Assembly: GCF_006345805.1 (NCBI RefSeq)
Contig: NC_043013.1
Location: 51,708,001 to 51,772,000, forward strand
Origin: Octopus sinensis
Taxonomy: Eukaryota
Direction of reading: 5' to 3'
Length of the DNA: 64,000 nucleotides
The position numbers and the translations under genes are program-made. Under the pieces are notes generated by a model. That model was not told the DNA's origin. It made no database searches and was given only the letters and a program-made list of their open reading frames with translations. Below are positions 12,882 through 32,451 of this stretch, one piece after another; the first letter of the stretch is position 1; each line of letters begins with the position of its first letter.

Positions 12882-13048
12882 GGTGTAGGAGTGGCTGTGT
12901 GGTAAGTAGCTTGCTTACCAACTACATGGTTCCGAGTTTAGTCCCACTGTGTGGCACCTTGGGCAAGTGTCTTCTACTATAGCCTCAGGCCGACTAAAGC
13001 CTTCCGAGTGGATTTGGTAGACAGAAACTGAAAGAAGCCCGTCTTATA

Positions 13049-13094
<46 letters not shown>

Positions 13095-13292
13095 TGTGTG
13101 TGTATATGTTTGTGTGTCTGTGTTTGTCCCCCCAACATCGCTTGACAACCGATGCTGGTGTGTCCCCGTAACTTAGCGGTTTGGCAAATGAGACCAATAG
13201 AATAAGTACTAGGCTTACAAAGAATAAGTCCTGGGATCGATTTGCTCGACTAAAGGTGGTGCTCCAGCATAGCCACAGTCAAATGACTGAAA
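12882..13292 (+). mobile_element. tRNA-derived SINE, family A (CORE-like ccttgggcaagt block, internal TA/TG microsatellite)
   Basis: ggagtggctgtgtggtaag...gttcagtcccactg...ccttgggcaagtgtcttctactatagcc...aaatgactgaaac. More than 20 copies or fragments, e.g. 1-170(-), 15641-16010(+), 16547-16858(+), 18395-18662(-), 24625-24992(+), 25930-26330(+), 37041-37400(+), 38390-38760(+), 39095-39440(-), 42285-42690(-), 44752-45150(-), 46110-46495(+), 46670-47085(-), 59777-60162(+). Confidence 0.9.
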
Positions 13293-14155
13293 CAATATAT
13301 GATTTTCAGTTTTTATCTACCAAATCCACTCAAAAGGTTTTAGGTGGCCAAAAGCTATAGTAGAAGTCACTGGTCCGAAGTACTGCACAGTGGAACTGAA
13401 CCTAGAACCATGTGGTTGGGAAGCAAGCTTCTTACTACACTGCCACACCTGCACTTTTTGTACCCACAATTCTACTTCTGGGTTTTGTATTATGTTGATT
13501 TTCCCCAGGTTGACTTAGCCTCTTTGGTTCCCTGTATAGAGGCTAAGCAGACAGTGCGGTGCTGACCATTGTTATCTGCAAGATCAGACAGATTTAGTTG
13601 TTACATTGAGCAAGTCACACAACTACATTCTATTGTCTGTGTGTCATAGAATGTATCAATGCATCATAGGCTGTAAGTGTGCCACTCACAATGACTTTGT
13701 GGCTATGTATACCTCGGCTTGTATTTGTGTGTGCTTGTCTGTGTGTGTATTCTGTATGTATGTATGTATATGAGTGTTTGTATATGTGTGTATGTACTCT
13801 CTCCTTTTGTATGTGATTGAATTTGTGTCTATATATCTGTATGTGTATGCATGTCTGTATGTGTGTGTCTATATTTATCTGTGTGTGTGTCTTTGCATTC
13901 ATGTCTATATGGATGTGTATATATGTTTATCTACCTATGCTTCTGTGTTTGTGTGTGTGCATGTCTATGAATTTGTGTTTGTATGCACTTCCTTCTATAT
14001 GTTTATGTTTGGGTGTGCCTGTGAGTACATGCATATGTATGTCTGTTTGTGTGTGTGTATATATATATGTGTGTGTATCTGTATACATGTGTATAAGTGT
14101 GCTTGTCTCTGTGTTTGTCTGTGGTGAATGTTTGTCTATATCTGAGTATTTATGT

Positions 14156-14182
<27 letters not shown>

Positions 14183-14190
<8 letters not shown>

Positions 14191-14386
14191 ATGTTACATT
14201 ACTCGGTAGTCAAGATAAAACTCTGAGTTTCAGATGCCCACAACACCATCTCTTCGGTTATCTGGCTATTTGAAAACTAGTTTTCAAATAGCCAGATAAC
14301 CGAAGAGATGGTGTTGTGGATTTCCACTTCGGCATCTGAAACTCAGAGTTTTATCTTGACTACCGAGTAATGTAACATATTGTATA
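14183..14386. repeat. ~200-bp near-perfect palindrome of a Penelope-type terminal sequence
   Basis: Centre aaaaCTAGtttt at 14278/14279. Left arm 96 bp, right arm 108 bp; they differ by one 12-nt indel (gatttccacttc). Confidence 0.92.
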
Positions 14387-14452
14387 GATAAATTTCCTCT
14401 ATTTACATAATATTGAGGTCTCTTTCTATCTTTTGTTATCTTACCGTTTTAT

Positions 14453-14498
<46 letters not shown>

Positions 14499-16448
14499 TT
14501 GTATGTGTTCCTGTGTATCTGTATACACATACGTCTGCGTCTGTGTATGTATATTTGTCGCTGTTATGTCTTTATATGTATAAGTCTGTGCATGTATGCC
14601 CTTATATGCATACATCTGTAAGTGTGTATATGTTTGTGTGTTGATAAAGTCAGAAGCATTTCGTAATAAGAGAAGAAACTCAGATGTGACTCGAATACAT
14701 GTAGTGGCCTTGGTGGTGGTGGTGGTGGTGGTGGTAGCCCTAATTGTTGTTGTTGTTATGTCATTCTGCCACACTGAAGTCGTTCCCCAACAGCTGTTTC
14801 ACTTAAAACAGAACAAAGAAGATTTGAAGCTGTGTGTTATCATCTGGATGGATGTAGTTTACCTACTGTGGAGGGTGAGTGACAGTAGGAGGAGGTTATC
14901 TGAGTGGAGAGAGTATGGTAGAGATAGTGGTTATGGTGGTAGTAGTGATGAAAGTTTTGATGGTTGTAGTGTGAGTGGTAGTAGTGTTCTGGAGATGTTG
15001 ATACTGTTGTTATTATTGTTGTCAGCCCTGATTGCACAATCGTGTGATCAAAGGCATTCCAGCCTTGCCCTACCCCACCATTATCATCTCTTTGTATGTA
15101 TAAAACTTCATTGCCTAATCTGTTCCTCATTTTTTAAGATAAGATGTGATTTGAGGAAGATTTAGCTGCTATTTCTAGTGCTGTTGTGCTTATTGGTGTC
15201 TAGTTATTACAGCTGTTGGTGTTGTTGATTCATAGTTACTTTAGTTATTGGCAGTGGTGGTCATGGTTGTGTTGGCTACATTATGGTTACTGCACTTAGG
15301 TTATTGTTGTTGTTCCTGATGTTTATTATCTAAGATGTTGCTTTTGTTAATACTGTTGTTGTTGTTGTCGGTTATGTTCTTGATATTGAGGTCATTGGTG
15401 GTTGTTGTTGTTGTTGTTGTTGTGCTGGTTGTAATTGCTGTATTTTTTTTTCTTCTTTTCTAATCAAGTTGGAAGAATTGGTGAAACAATGGACACAAAA
15501 TTACTTATAGCATTTAGCTTTATCTCTAAGTATTTCTTGTTGAGACTTCATGGTGAGAGGAGGGGGTATCATCATCACTATCAAATATCATCACCACCAC
15601 CATCATCATCAACACCATCACTATCAGTATCATTATCATAGGTGCAGTATGGCTGTGTGGTAAGAAGCTTGCTTACCAACCACATGGTTCCGGGTTCAGT
15701 CCCACTGCGTGGCGCCTTGGGCAAGTGTCTTCGACTTTTGCCTCAGGCTGACCAAAGCCTTGTGAGTAGATTTGGTAGATGGGAACTGAAAGAAGCCCAT
15801 CGTATATATACATGTGTGTCTGTGTTTGTCCCCTCAACATTGCTTGACAACCGATGTTGGTGTGTTTACATCCCCGTAACTTAGCGGTTTGGCAAAAAGA
15901 CAACAATAGAGTAAGTACTAGACTTGCAAAGAATAAGTCCTGGGGTTGATTTGTTCGACTAAAGGCAGTGCTCCAGCATGGCCACAGTCAAATGACTGAA
16001 ACATGCAAAAGAATAATAGAATAGTAGTTTTGATGTCTTCTTGTCCAATCCATTCTGGAATGGATTGAACAAGACTTAACAACACAGTATTTAATGGACA
16101 GAAACCCTTGCTGTTGTCCACCCCTATTTATTTTGTTTTTTGTTTAGTTTTTTTTCAAATAAGATATATTTTATATTCCACTCTTCTATTCACAAAACCA
16201 GCAAAATCTGACATTCTTTGGGACATATTGTTTGGTGGGAGATGTACGGCCAGCACACAGGTTCTCAAATGACATTCAGGTGAAAGCACACAGTTGCACA
16301 TGTGTATGTATTATGTAAATATGATGGCCATCCATACATTGTGGAGTCAATAAAATAAAACACAAGTGAAGTACAGGGGTCAAGTGAATTGGCTTCGACT
16401 TTTCCTGAAAGCATCCAGCCTTGTGCCAGTCAAGTACTGGGACTGATA

Positions 16449-17112
16449 CAGGGCCAGATTAAGACCCATAGAGGGCCTAAGCACTTAAAAGGTTTTGGTG
16501 CCCTCAAGTATATATAAATGGTTCAGAATGTAAACAAAAATAATTCAGTGGCTGTGTGGTAAGTAGCTTGCTTACCAACCACATGGTTCTTGGTTCAGTC
16601 CCACTACATGGCACCTTGGGCAAGTGTCTTCTACTATAGTCTCGGGCCGACCAAAGCCTTGTAAGTGGATGTGGTCGATGGAAACTGAAAGTGTGTCTGT
16701 GTTTGTCCCCCGCAACATTGCTTGACAGCTGATGCTGGTGTGTTTACGTCCTTGTAACTTAGCAGTTCGGCAAAAGAGACCAACAGAATAAGTACTAGGC
16801 TTACAAAGACTAAGTCCTGGGGTTGATTTGCTCGACTAAAGGCAGTGCTCCAGCATGGAGTTTTCTCTGAAAAGTTTTCTCCTTTGTTTTTTGCTTTTTT
16901 AATTGCAAAGTGTTTGATGACATCGTTAAAATTAATTTTACATAAAACTTCTGCTTCTATACTTAGTAGAGATAAAGCATTCTGAATATTATTTTAGCAA
17001 GTTTAAACTGATTTCTTTGTGCCCTAAACCATTTACCATTTCTGTGGTGCCCCTTCCTTCCCTTGATGCCCTAAACATGTGCTTATTTTGCTCAATGGTT
17101 AATCCAGTGCTG
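16449..17112. mobile_element. hAT-like MITE with a nested SINE A insertion
   Basis: Imperfect TIRs cagggccagattaa / ttaatccagtgctg. Flanks gactgata / aattgatg may be a decayed 8-bp TSD. Confidence 0.5.
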
Positions 17113-19064: not shown

Positions 19065-21538
19065 TCTCTTTCTCTCTCTCCTCATAACAATGACATTTTA
19101 TTAACAACAACAAGAATATGTGCAACATAACTCAATAGTGAAATCACTTTAGTTTTGGTGTCATGTCTGGTGGACTAGATTGGGGTGGTGGTGCTCTGTG
19201 TTCCATAGACAGGGAGGGTGGGGACAGATGTAGAGGGTGTAGATGATGCTGAAGCAAGCAGAGATGAAGGTGTATATAACTGGTAGTGTAGTATGGGCGA
19301 GGGTGTGGATGAAAATGTTTACACTCATGTATGTATACAGCCATGGGGATGAAGTGATGGTGGTGGTGGTGGTAGTTGTGGTGGTAGCGGTGGAGTGATA
19401 TGAAATGATGGTATAGGTGGTGGTGTTATGGTGTTGAGGGGAATTTATAAATATATGTGATGTGGTGGTGGTGGTGGTAAGGCTGGGGTGAAGGTGTTGG
19501 TATAGGCGGCGGTATGGTAGTGGTTTTGGTGCTGGTGCTGGTATGACGAGACGTGCACCTACTGCTGCTGCTGCTGTTATTGTTGAGGTGATCCAGAAGA
19601 AAGCAAAGTGATTGGTTTGTCATCATTTCTGACCATTGTCAACTTTTGGTAGACAATGGAAGAAGTGTGAGTGATATAGTATAGGTTTGGTGGGGGTGGT
19701 CGTGATAGGAGAGGTGTTGGTGGCAGTGGTGGTGATAATATTTCTGAGGATGATGATGACAATGGTAATAGAATTGATAGACTGTGGCACAGATGGTGGT
19801 GGTAGTAGCAGTAGTAGTAAAAACTGATTGCAGTACCATTTTTTTCTGCTGGTGGTGGTTATAGTAGTGGCAGTGGTGATGGTGGTGGTAGTAGTAGATA
19901 TTTTAGTGATTTTTTTCTGGTAGTTACGATGGTGGTGGTGGTGGTATAGGTGATGGAGGTGACGGTGTTTGAGTCATAATGATGATGGCGATGGTGGTGA
20001 TGATGATGATGATGGTGGTGCAATGGTATTCTTTGAGCGTGATTCTATGGGAATTATTAGTCATTCGTATTAAGAGTGATGTGGGGGTGGTGGTGTGGGG
20101 TGGCGTGGAGGTGAGGCCACCCCTTACCCCCCACCCCCTAAAATCTGGGGAGGTGAAAAAAAACAATCATTGCTCATGTTTAACGGTATTAAGGAATGGC
20201 ACTTTATATTAATGGTGGTGGTGGTGGTGACTATGATGACGGTGGTGGTGGTGAGATAGTGATTGTGGTGGTGGCAGTGATGGAGGGGATGGTGATAGCA
20301 TGGTGGTGATAGTGGTAGTGGTGGTGGTGGTGACAGTTGAAACAGTGAGATGATGGTGATGTTTAGTGATGGGCTGTTGGTGGCAGTGGTAGTGATGATG
20401 GTGGTGGTGGTTGTGATGTGGTATGGTTATAATGGTGACTGATGATGAGGATGCCTACTGGTGGTGGTGATGTGGATGATGGTGGTAGTAGTGGTGTTGA
20501 TGATGATGGAAATGGTGGTGGTGGTAGTGGTAATGGTGATGATGCGGTATGGCTATAATGATGATGACAGTGATGATGATGAAGATAACTGATGCTGGTG
20601 GTGGTAACAGAAACTCAATGTTACTGCTGCTATCGATGGTGGTGGTGGTGATGCTGCTGCTGATGATGGTGGTGGTGGTGATGATGATGAGGATAATGAT
20701 AGTGATGATGATGGTGGTGGTGATGATGATGATGATGGAGACATTGCCTCTGGCACATCTTACCTATGGGATTTACCAGTGGGATGTTTCTCATTTTGGC
20801 ATTTTCAAGAATTCTTTCTTCCTTCAACATGAAAACCGTGACATCAGCAGCAGCAACAACAACAGCAGCAACATTGACAGGAACAACAAAACCATACCTT
20901 TCCTTTCTCGTTCCACATCTAACCCATAAGAACAACAACAACATTCACATTATTAAAAGCAACAACAACAACAACAACATTAGCAGCAGCAATGTGAGAC
21001 ACCAACAATAGTACAGACAGCAACAACAACATCAACAACATCTGCAAGACAAGCAAACAGATATCTTTCCCACCTCAGATCCCCCCCCCATCCTCCCACC
21101 CATGATCTTATAAACAACTGTAACAGCAACAACAACAACAACATCAGTACCAGCAACTGCAGCAGCACACGAAGAATAGTATGGACAACAACAACAAAAT
21201 GTTACACATCACCACCACTAACAACAACAACAGCAATAATGGTTATAATAGCAAAAACAACTACAAAAATATAATATGAAAACATCACCAACAACAACAA
21301 TTTTATCTTACACAACAGCAGTAGCAGCAGCAGCAGCAACCATTATCAAAAGCTGGTACAAAAAGCAAGAACCACAACAACAACATAAACGTGATGTTGC
21401 CGTTCTCACCTACAAACATTTCCCTCTATTCTGCACCATCACCAACTCGTCCTTACCTTTAATGACATCAATTAAACTTTCAGAAGTTCCCATCATTTAA
21501 ATCATATCTACATTTAACTAATGTTTAAAACCAACCCC

Positions 21539-21569
<31 letters not shown>

Positions 21570-21619
21570 TGCTTGCTCTCTCTCTCCCTCTCCCCTTTGA
21601 TCTGTTCCCAAATGCCTCT

Positions 21620-22075
21620 GCTTTCTCTAAACACTGCCCATGAGATGCTTTGTTTTATCAACTTCCAAATATTCTTTGAAAGTGCGATGGTACTTTCCAG
21701 GTGGCAATGATGAAATGAGTTGTTGTGCTGGTGTATACATCTTTTGAAAGATTCCTCTGTGATCCCTCTGTAGTTTATTGATGTTTTGTTGGTGGAGACA
21801 TCAGTAAGGAGTATAATGCCTTTCTCTAGATATTGGGCACAAAGCTCCATCGTACAGCAGTTACATATTAGCTCCCTTTACTCTTATTTGCATTGGGTCT
21901 TCTTGATAGTATTAGATTTATTTTAATGCAGCTGTAGCTTATCTTTGTGTTGTTCTTGATGATCATCTCATAGAATTTATGGCTGTTTGGGAAATGATTT
22001 CTGATTAAGAAAAGGATATGTTTGCTACTCTAGTTTTTACACCAGTATTGAGTGCTGAGTGACACCATGTAACAT
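21620..22075 (-). pseudogene. Penelope-like element remnant (linker plus GIY-YIG endonuclease region)
   Basis: Minus-strand reads include IRNHFPNSHKFY, NTKISYSCIK and GIILLTDVSTNKTSINYRGITEESFKRCIHQHNNSF..STIALSKNIWKL..SISW. These follow the Penelope pattern HFP..H.L / NT.K.SYSC / IY....Y.G.TE..FK.R...H..SF / T.LS..IW.L. Frameshifted and degraded. Confidence 0.8.
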
Positions 22076-26741: not shown

Positions 26742-26787
26742 AACACAACATTTCGGCTGATATACCCTCCAGCCTTCATCAGGTATC
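26742..26787 (-). ncRNA. Minimal type I hammerhead-like motif (Penelope-type)
   Basis: Minus strand: gatac-CTGATGA-A-GGCTG-(10 nt)-CAGCC-GAAAT-GT-T-gtgtt. Perfect 5-bp stem II; C15.2 to T is consistent with CpG decay. Confidence 0.6.
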
Positions 26788-31454: not shown

Positions 31455-32451
31455 TTAATCATCAATGTACTTTCCCTGATTATCTATGACTTCCTTCCAT
31501 CTATTTACAAACTTTTAATCCCATCAATGTAAAACTCTTCTGGTTTCAAAGCAAAGAACTCTGAAATGTCAGTTTCGACCTCCTCCTGGCTTGGGCAAGT
31601 TATGTCCCTCAAATGATTCTGTAAACTACGAAACAAATGGTAGTCTGAAGGAGCAAGGTCGGGAGAATATGGGGGATGAGGAATTTTTTCCCAAACAAGC
31701 TTTTCAATGTTCTGTGATGTGATCTTTGCATTGTCCTGATGAAACATTGCTCCTTTTTGATTCACTAATGCGGGTCTTTTTTTCTTCAAAGCTTGGTTCA
31801 AACGCTCTAATTGCTGACAGTAGACTTGAGCACTGATTGTTGCATTAGGTGGTAACAATTCAAAGTGAATTACTCCTTTGTAATCCCACCAGATAGAGAG
31901 AACCTTTTTACCATGAAGTTCCCTTCTTGATTGTGATCGAACTTTTTCCCTTTTACAAATCCACTGTTTACGTTTGACATTTCGATAGAAGTTCCATTTT
32001 TTCACAAGTCGATCCAAAATGGGTGAAGTGAGTTTGCAAGAATGGAGAGAAGAGCAGATGTCAACTCGGGATTTGTGGTTGCTTTCGGACAATTCATGAG
32101 GCACCCATTTTCCAAGTTGAGGAACCTTTCCAAGTTGTTGAAGATGACGATGAACAGTTGTATGGTTTGAACTAAGCTTTATTGCCAAGTCTTCAACTGA
32201 TAATGCAGGATTTTCTTCAAGTAATGCTTCAAGGAGCTTATCATCAAACTCATCTGGACGTCCTGTTCAATCTTCATCTTCAAGGCTGACATCTCCACTT
32301 CTGAATTTTGCAAACCATCTTCTGCAAGTTCTTTCATTCAAGCATTCTTTCCCATAAACTGAGTGTATGTTTTGAGATGCTTTGGCTGCAGAGTTTCCTT
32401 TTTTTGTACTCAAAGCATTATGTGCCTCCAATACGCTTTGGATACTTCCAT
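31455..32451 (-). pseudogene. Mariner (Tc1/mariner DD34D) transposase pseudogene
   Basis: ATG at 32451 (MEVSKAYWRHIML...), HTH region RTCRRWFAKFRSGD, WVPHELS, HQDNA, HPPYSPDLAPSDYHLF, C-terminus RWKEVIDNQGKYIDD* at 31455. Has frameshifts/stops and has lost the first catalytic Asp block (TGDE). One probable TIR near 31381; the other was not found. Confidence 0.93.

Follow-up and report, generated by a model that had tools for sequence, protein, structure and literature searches.

The architecture described below, a stub insertion of a Penelope-like element (PLE) with an inverted companion, is itself already in print (Arkhipova et al. 2013, PMC3846280). In that account an inverted and shorter pLTR accompanies the element, a tail may be present on one side, palindromes lie at mostly head-to-head junctions, where they were read as the outcome of self-priming, and microhomology deletions occur. 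A bias towards (TA)n masks target-site duplications in such insertions (Craig et al., bioRxiv 10.1101/2021.04.23.441226). Frangieh et al. (2024, PMC11167929) reported cleavage of AT-rich DNA and two reverse-transcription starts that define the tail, and found that the hammerhead cuts only with the element's protein; in vitro insertion of the anole element was independent of the hammerhead cut, catalytic mutants being without effect.

As for the hammerheads carried by these elements, Cervera and De la Pena (2014, PMC4209133) described 56 animal hammerheads, all with U4, but their descriptor required U4. In their Fig. S3 an extra base follows A9 in 54 of the 56, and one entry, of the GAAA kind, has an extra A before G12. 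A change of U4 to C is described for a viroid hammerhead, in which activity in vitro is lower and infectivity is kept (Ambros and Flores 1998, via PMC3088659). When the literature, covered in part, was searched for PLE or cephalopod hammerheads with a U4C core, this viroid case alone was returned, and the variant may be in print beyond it. PMC3907566 and PMC11014351 yielded nothing on U4C, and 10.64898/2026.07.22.740005, PMC8969392, PMC6155905 and PMC8967140 yielded nothing decisive.

The locus studied here lies in a stretch of 64 kb (the window) from a microsatellite-rich animal genome, and the repeats near it resemble those of octopus. Like the published PLE insertions (PMC3846280; bioRxiv 10.1101/2021.04.23.441226), it combines a truncated direct copy with a shorter inverted one, a palindrome at their junction, a tail at one end, a (TA)n target that hides any target-site duplication, and a microhomology deletion. 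It differs from them in being only 273 nt long in all, in having no ORF, and in a tail of 69 nt against the published 30-40 nt. For the repeat family to which it belongs, we aligned the contigs of four public runs (X21, X12, X1 and X14), one per organism (A to D), to positions 14250-14460. The features of the locus, in window coordinates, are the following.

14158-14186, no strand: left (AT)n microsatellite, the presumed insertion target; it shares 4 nt with the end of the inverted arm.
14183-14277, minus strand: inverted 5'-truncated family copy without tail and with a 12-nt deletion in helix II (from the arm alignment; at least six X21 contigs and at least one X12 contig pass into (TA)n behind 14390).
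14213-14263, minus strand: mirrored hammerhead-like motif, core 14257-14251, helix II down to 4 bp plus a 10-nt loop; no fold is predicted.
14242-14315, both strands: Rfam mir-9 match, 62.9 bits against a gathering threshold of 58.6, arising from the perfect inner hairpin.
14278-14279, no strand: central TA, the head-to-head junction, without match to the upstream family sequence (loose ends before 14280/14281 in X21, X12 and X1).
14280-14455, plus strand: 3' end of a repeat family of high copy number, in direct orientation and 5'-truncated, presumably a Penelope-like pLTR region (contigs of four runs).
14287-14364, plus strand: motif resembling a type I hammerhead; its helix I can be lengthened to 13 positions if one bulge is allowed, three of them mismatched in the present copy, and the cut is predicted after U14350 (GUU).
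14300-14306, plus strand: 5' strand of the core, CCGAAGA, with C at position 4, the family consensus (no variant row of at least 3% in the four runs).
14307-14336, plus strand: helix II, 10 pairs with internal loops, beginning with G10.1-C11.1; no other part of the fold is predicted as well (P 0.98-1.0).
14319-14330, plus strand: 12 nt kept in the right arm and deleted in the left (arm alignment).
14337, plus strand: extra pyrimidine before G12, T here and C in 4-53% of family depth; the T can pair with A9 (P 0.77-0.82).
14338-14350, plus strand: GAAA, U16.1-U17 and a 9-nt odd palindrome, whose helix III has 3 bp in the monomer and 4+4 bp (-7.4 kcal/mol) in the dimer.
14387-14455, plus strand: one-sided 69-nt tail; the one substitution found in no other copy lies here, at 14428, and the segment 14429-14441 is able to pair with 14294-14306.
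14455-14496, no strand: right (AT)n microsatellite; family copies too end in (TA)n (loose ends behind 14449/14450 in all four runs).

The palindrome, placed between the two (AT)n runs, spans 204 bp (14183-14386) and is made up, without spacer, of a left arm of 96 nt (14183-14278) and a right arm of 108 nt (14279-14386). When the reverse-complemented left side is aligned to the right side, the arms are identical at 96 of 96 aligned positions, and the one departure is a gap of 12 nt at right-arm positions 14319-14330 (or 14320-14331, given a 1-nt G microhomology). This bears out the spacer-less inverted duplication with one 12-nt indel described in the first-pass annotation. The same annotation had placed the indel in loop II, which did not hold: the gap takes half of the distal hairpin of the 10-pair helix II. 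The inner 82 nt form a perfect palindrome, the sole non-microsatellite one with arms of at least 14 nt in the window. As RNA the palindrome folds with a z of -28; as single-stranded DNA its hairpin energies are -46.4 (inner 82 nt) and -105.3 kcal/mol, and with an AT-rich centre, extrusion of a cruciform appears plausible from these modelled values. Elsewhere around the locus there is a SINE-like repeat with several copies in both orientations, 76-92% alike (12883-13454, 15647-15979 and 16548-16856), and further away a mariner-type transposase remnant at 31505-32266 on the minus strand (PF01359, E 7.6e-24).

The stretch, or part of it, was present in 22 of the 24 public runs listed, from nine studies. 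In the four runs chosen for the survey, 1619, 220, 391 and 185 contigs aligned, counts from which subfamilies less than 80% alike would escape and in which rare variants are lost at the contig stage; short variant contigs in such numbers, in the hundreds, are the sign of a repeat with many copies. Apart from four X21 contigs, family depth is limited to 14274-14460. Summed contig depth, which is not to be equated with copy number, reaches 93,874 in X21 at 14282-14289 against 74-100 at 14250-14273, a drop of about 1000-fold left of the centre, and depth left of the centre is zero in the other three runs. The family itself is thus without the palindrome, since about 0.1% of the X21 depth crosses the centre and none does in the three other runs. 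The four X21 contigs that do cross it have depths of 7.6, 11.3, 9.26 and 67.6, which in sum (95.8) make up the entire depth there. In every one of them small indels or substitutions relative to the window fall at 14276-14281, a site 20 nt ahead of the core. These four junctions fit inversions rebuilt near the same site at each insertion, that is, a hotspot; they could also be fold-back library chimeras in a high-copy repeat. The 12-nt deletion of the left arm is not among the indels listed for any of the four runs. In one X14 contig with a loose end before 14328, the letters beyond it resemble, by eye, the reverse complement of family positions 14360-14385, which would be an inverted junction elsewhere.

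Among the 24 loose ends listed out of 152, the family continues upstream of 14280 in three of the four runs (ends before 14280/14281 in at least 5 and at least 14 contigs of X21, at least two of X12 and at least three of X1), passes into (TA)n after about 14455 in all four, and also does so at about 14386-14390, the exact stop of the inverted arm, in at least two of the four. A family depth confined to right arm and tail, the upstream continuation and the (TA)n ends together indicate that two copies meet head to head at the locus, linked by two extra bases: a direct one, which is truncated at its 5' end and bears the 69-nt tail, and an inverted one that lacks the tail. Because this copy departs from the majority letters of the family at one listed position (14428), it is young. 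No family copy was found in four scans of prokaryote, metagenome and viral collections, nor a second one by blastn in the 64-kb window.

We read the locus as a young stub insertion of a PLE, of known architecture, with a probability of about 0.75. The 5' truncation known from PLE (EN+) insertions is present, as is the adjacent inverted 5'-truncated copy, head to head and with a palindromic junction. A tail occurs on the right only (14387-14455), and (AT)n lies on both sides, a target-site duplication being unreadable inside such a repeat. Four features of architecture (the inverted 5'-truncated copy, the palindrome at the head-to-head junction, the one-sided tail and the bias towards (TA)n) support the recent Penelope-type inverted insertion that had been proposed from the letters of the DNA, and by analogy we infer that the family belongs to the PLEs; a parent RT or GIY-YIG ORF tied to the family was not found within the 30 nt of upstream sequence that are visible. 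A frame at 21518-21877 on the minus strand is reminiscent of a PLE GIY-YIG endonuclease; Pfam and Atlas gave it no support and nothing ties it to the family. An ATG stands at the start of helix II, where the ORF of the anole PLE also starts (PMC11167929), and a stop follows here after 20 codons.

In the course of events that we propose, an RT/GIY-YIG protein, presumably supplied by a parent copy elsewhere, would nick a (TA)n microsatellite and copy no more than the final ~176 nt of the element's RNA. Some 20 nt ahead of the ribozyme core, copying would turn back on itself and give an inverted second copy that ends before the tail, a putative fold-back self-priming modelled on that of PMC3846280, and a 12-nt microhomology deletion would then hit one of the arms. 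The hammerhead of the pLTR, which in the contigs of all four organisms has C at position 4 and an additional pyrimidine ahead of G12, most likely descended from a working PLE hammerhead and may cut slowly, or only when helped by dimer formation or by the element's protein. At the locus it would most likely be silent, a read-through transcript forming a hairpin of ~96 bp instead.

That the family is real and the inverted arm at the locus an artefact of assembly or of a fold-back read is an explanation for which two observations can be cited: the arms are identical apart from the gap, and no aligned contig of the four runs has the exact junction of the window or spans the stretch. However, the mirror stops at 14386, where family contigs too enter (TA)n, whereas a fold-back read would run on through the tail and the right flank. 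A clean 12-nt deletion is present in just one of the arms, their outer flanks are different sequences, and the two central bases are foreign to both copies, so that we consider an artefact improbable; the palindrome, real as far as the assembly goes, probably exists in the genome too. Another objection to the PLE reading would be that the family derives from a SINE, a LINE tail or a MITE-like palindromic element and that its hammerhead shape is accidental. The parent ORF was not found (in 30 nt of upstream sequence), the core deviates at two places and no Rfam hammerhead model matches, all of which would agree with such an origin, and the length of the tail, 69 nt instead of 30-40 nt, counts against a PLE together with the extra base before G12 instead of the usual one after A9. 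Yet the shape is missing from 40 resampled windows, the core is invariant while adjacent positions vary, and the two alternative 3' ends in (TA)n are like those of PLE tails, and we give a non-PLE origin little credence. A MITE with the arms as its terminal repeats is excluded, the family not being palindromic by the depth over its centre.

A third explanation concerns only the inner hairpin, which might be a gene of the mir-9 microRNA family or act as one. RF00237 (mir-9) is the sole Rfam match at gathering level, passing that threshold and scoring about 18 bits above the next microRNA family, and the hairpin agrees with the 5p consensus at 19 of 23 positions (chance about 1e-5 for this element and motif; the best of 3000 shuffles reached 17). 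However, mir-9 is one of 4227 families and was picked after the fact, and, unlike in a mir-9/mir-79 precursor, the seed is changed here (position 5 of 5p), the 3p arm differs too, and the hairpin is a perfect palindrome brought about by transposon inversion. It scores equally on both strands, many further microRNA models score on it as well, and its 5p arm lies outside the family, being missing from ~99.9% of family depth. We rejected the gene reading because the seed differs and the precursor exists only through the inversion; any microRNA role of the hairpin is very improbable, and it is most likely the inversion that gave rise to the hit. The plus strand at 14284-14306 is also complementary to the Rfam mir-9 5p consensus, with 19 Watson-Crick and two G-U pairs out of 23 at -26.6 kcal/mol (best of 600 shuffles, -21.8). 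This segment overlaps helix I and the variant core, C4 forming one of the Watson-Crick pairs. We treat the complementarity as coincidence and regard slicing of family transcripts by a host mir-9 microRNA as a lead of very low probability; among the titles covered by our literature search none was relevant to a link between PLEs and mir-9.

To return to the PLE reading, the right arm holds a helix I of 6 bp (14294-14299/14351-14356), the core CCGAAGA (14300-14306), helix II (14307-14336), an extra T (14337), GAAA (14338-14341), a 9-nt odd palindrome (14341-14349) and T14350 as N17. The type I topology with 6-bp helix I, U4 changed to C and an extra base before GAAA, as first annotated, was found at its place. 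Set against the core C3 U4 G5 A6 N7 G8 A9, both arms and the family consensus have C at position 4. G12 A13 A14 A15.1, U16.1 and H17 are all there (14338-14341, 14349 and 14350), without variant rows, and T14337, which can also be drawn as a bulge of helix II, intervenes between the closing pair 10.1-11.1 and G12. Three helices around the core are formally present, yet even for the right arm on its own this fold is 3.9 kcal/mol less stable than the MFE. A relaxed descriptor, composed after the motif was seen, matched three sites in the window, namely the two arms and, at 26782, a canonical motif unrelated to them, against none on either strand of 40 Markov-resampled windows, so that the hammerhead shape is not due to chance. 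No Rfam hammerhead model is among the 45 matches at E up to 10. The motif at 26782, the positive control of the descriptor, is a canonical minimal PLE-type hammerhead of a second, unrelated family (26749-26787, minus strand), with a U4 core, an extra base after A9, a helix II of 5-6 bp and no helix III.

The closest known counterparts of the motif in the right arm are the PLE hammerheads with a small palindromic helix III (PMC4209133: Drosophila, Aedes, rotifer, shrimp and Saccoglossus types). They are likewise of type I and near the 3' end of the element, with a long helix II starting with G10.1-C11.1, a palindromic 15.1-16.1 region suited to dimers and U17 allowed. They differ in having U4 where the present family has C4 (C4 in 0 of the 56, with a descriptor that required U4) and mostly in having an extra base after A9 (absent from two of the 56), which here is replaced by an extra pyrimidine before G12. 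The U4C viroid variant (PMC3088659) has the same core change; however, it is a variant of a hammerhead with tertiary contacts, whereas here C4 is the consensus in an animal repeat family of high copy number, alongside another irregularity and a weak helix III.

In the contigs of the four runs, 19 variant rows reach at least 3% in at least one run, and none of the 19 falls on the 13 core positions. CCGAAGA is the consensus of the family and not a private mutation (at the contig level, in four organisms), which answers in the affirmative the question raised with the first annotation; a U4 subfamily may exist outside the aligned contigs. Nine of the rows, at eight positions, lie within 14287-14364; the ten rows beyond this span were set aside, as was a transversion at 14363 that a single contig shows, at 3% in X14. 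At four of the eight positions the variant turns a distal mismatch of helix I into a Watson-Crick pair, at two it keeps the pair as G-U, at one a mismatch is exchanged for another, and the last position is that of the additional base, where T becomes C in 4-53%; no pair is lost and the core stays untouched. If the variants were independent, the absence of damage would have P ~0.006 and the four repairs P ~0.0007, values that overstate the case, since linkage of the alleles within subfamilies is probable and the variants were in view when the helix was drawn. Helix registers that are slid along the sequence also yield two to three such repairs, with fewer pairs. One helix pair occurs as both G-C and A-U, according to allele tables without haplotypes; the pattern as a whole suggests covariation in the family but does not prove it. 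The repairing alleles are a minority in three of the four runs; their share is highest in organism D and small in A and C, and this copy matches the majority type of A and C; the dominant subfamily may be decaying. The architecture being known, it is the family-wide C4 core that is, judged by its sequence, a new hammerhead variant. If the family hammerhead does still cleave, we know of no earlier genomic family that relies on a non-U-turn core.

Structure prediction bears on whether such a motif would fold and cut. C4 itself and the energy of the fold relative to the MFE speak against cutting, as does a predicted pairing of T14337 with A9 in the right arm (P 0.77-0.82), which would take away a core contact. 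When the tail is present, the probability of helix I falls to 0.02-0.06, and positions 14429-14441 of the tail pair over 14294-14306 (helix I and the 5' strand of the core), a pairing dominant in the predicted ensemble (P ~0.87). As many as 72 of 1000 shuffled tails pair as well as the real one, and a tail that would act as a switch of the ribozyme is taken here as a lead only. In favour of cutting one may cite the core invariant in four organisms, the U4C viroid precedent and the 9-nt palindrome, which pairs with itself at -7.4 kcal/mol, a self-pairing of helix III of the kind that dimer-type PLE hammerheads require (PMC6765202). From these features of the sequence, measurable cleavage by some allele of the family seems to us a real prospect, if somewhat short of an even chance. 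The fuller proposition, that the family hammerhead with C4 and the extra pyrimidine before G12, fixed in at least four organisms, would still cleave with the help of a dimer or of the element protein and would be switched off by its own tail, is tentative and in our view rather unlikely.

At the locus itself the situation is different. A transcript through both arms is predicted to form a hairpin of -157 kcal/mol in which helices I and II have a probability of 0.0. The mirrored copy had been expected to keep its fold and the presence of two orientations to matter for the ribozyme. Neither expectation found support. The fold is kept on paper only; in the prediction, the four proximal pairs of helix II in that copy have P 0.000 against 0.82 in the right arm alone, and the mirrored copy fails to fold even by itself. 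The two motifs lie on opposite strands, so that no dimer arises in cis, and the arms pair together. Because they pair with each other, neither copy should fold at the locus, where hammerhead cutting would most likely not take place, and if the locus is transcribed, the product is likely a long double-stranded RNA.

The palindrome is ordinary PLE debris, and what should interest those who work on ribozymes and transposons is that C4 is the core letter across the family. A further lesson is that false microRNA calls in Rfam can come from PLE inversions. Since published searches require U4, families like this one are missed; if the proposed cleavage by the family hammerhead is true, the family would be invisible to CUGANGA descriptors and PLE hammerheads would be undercounted. 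The natural alleles, with T or C before G12 and with helix I repaired or unrepaired, would offer a ready series on whether PLE hammerheads must cut.
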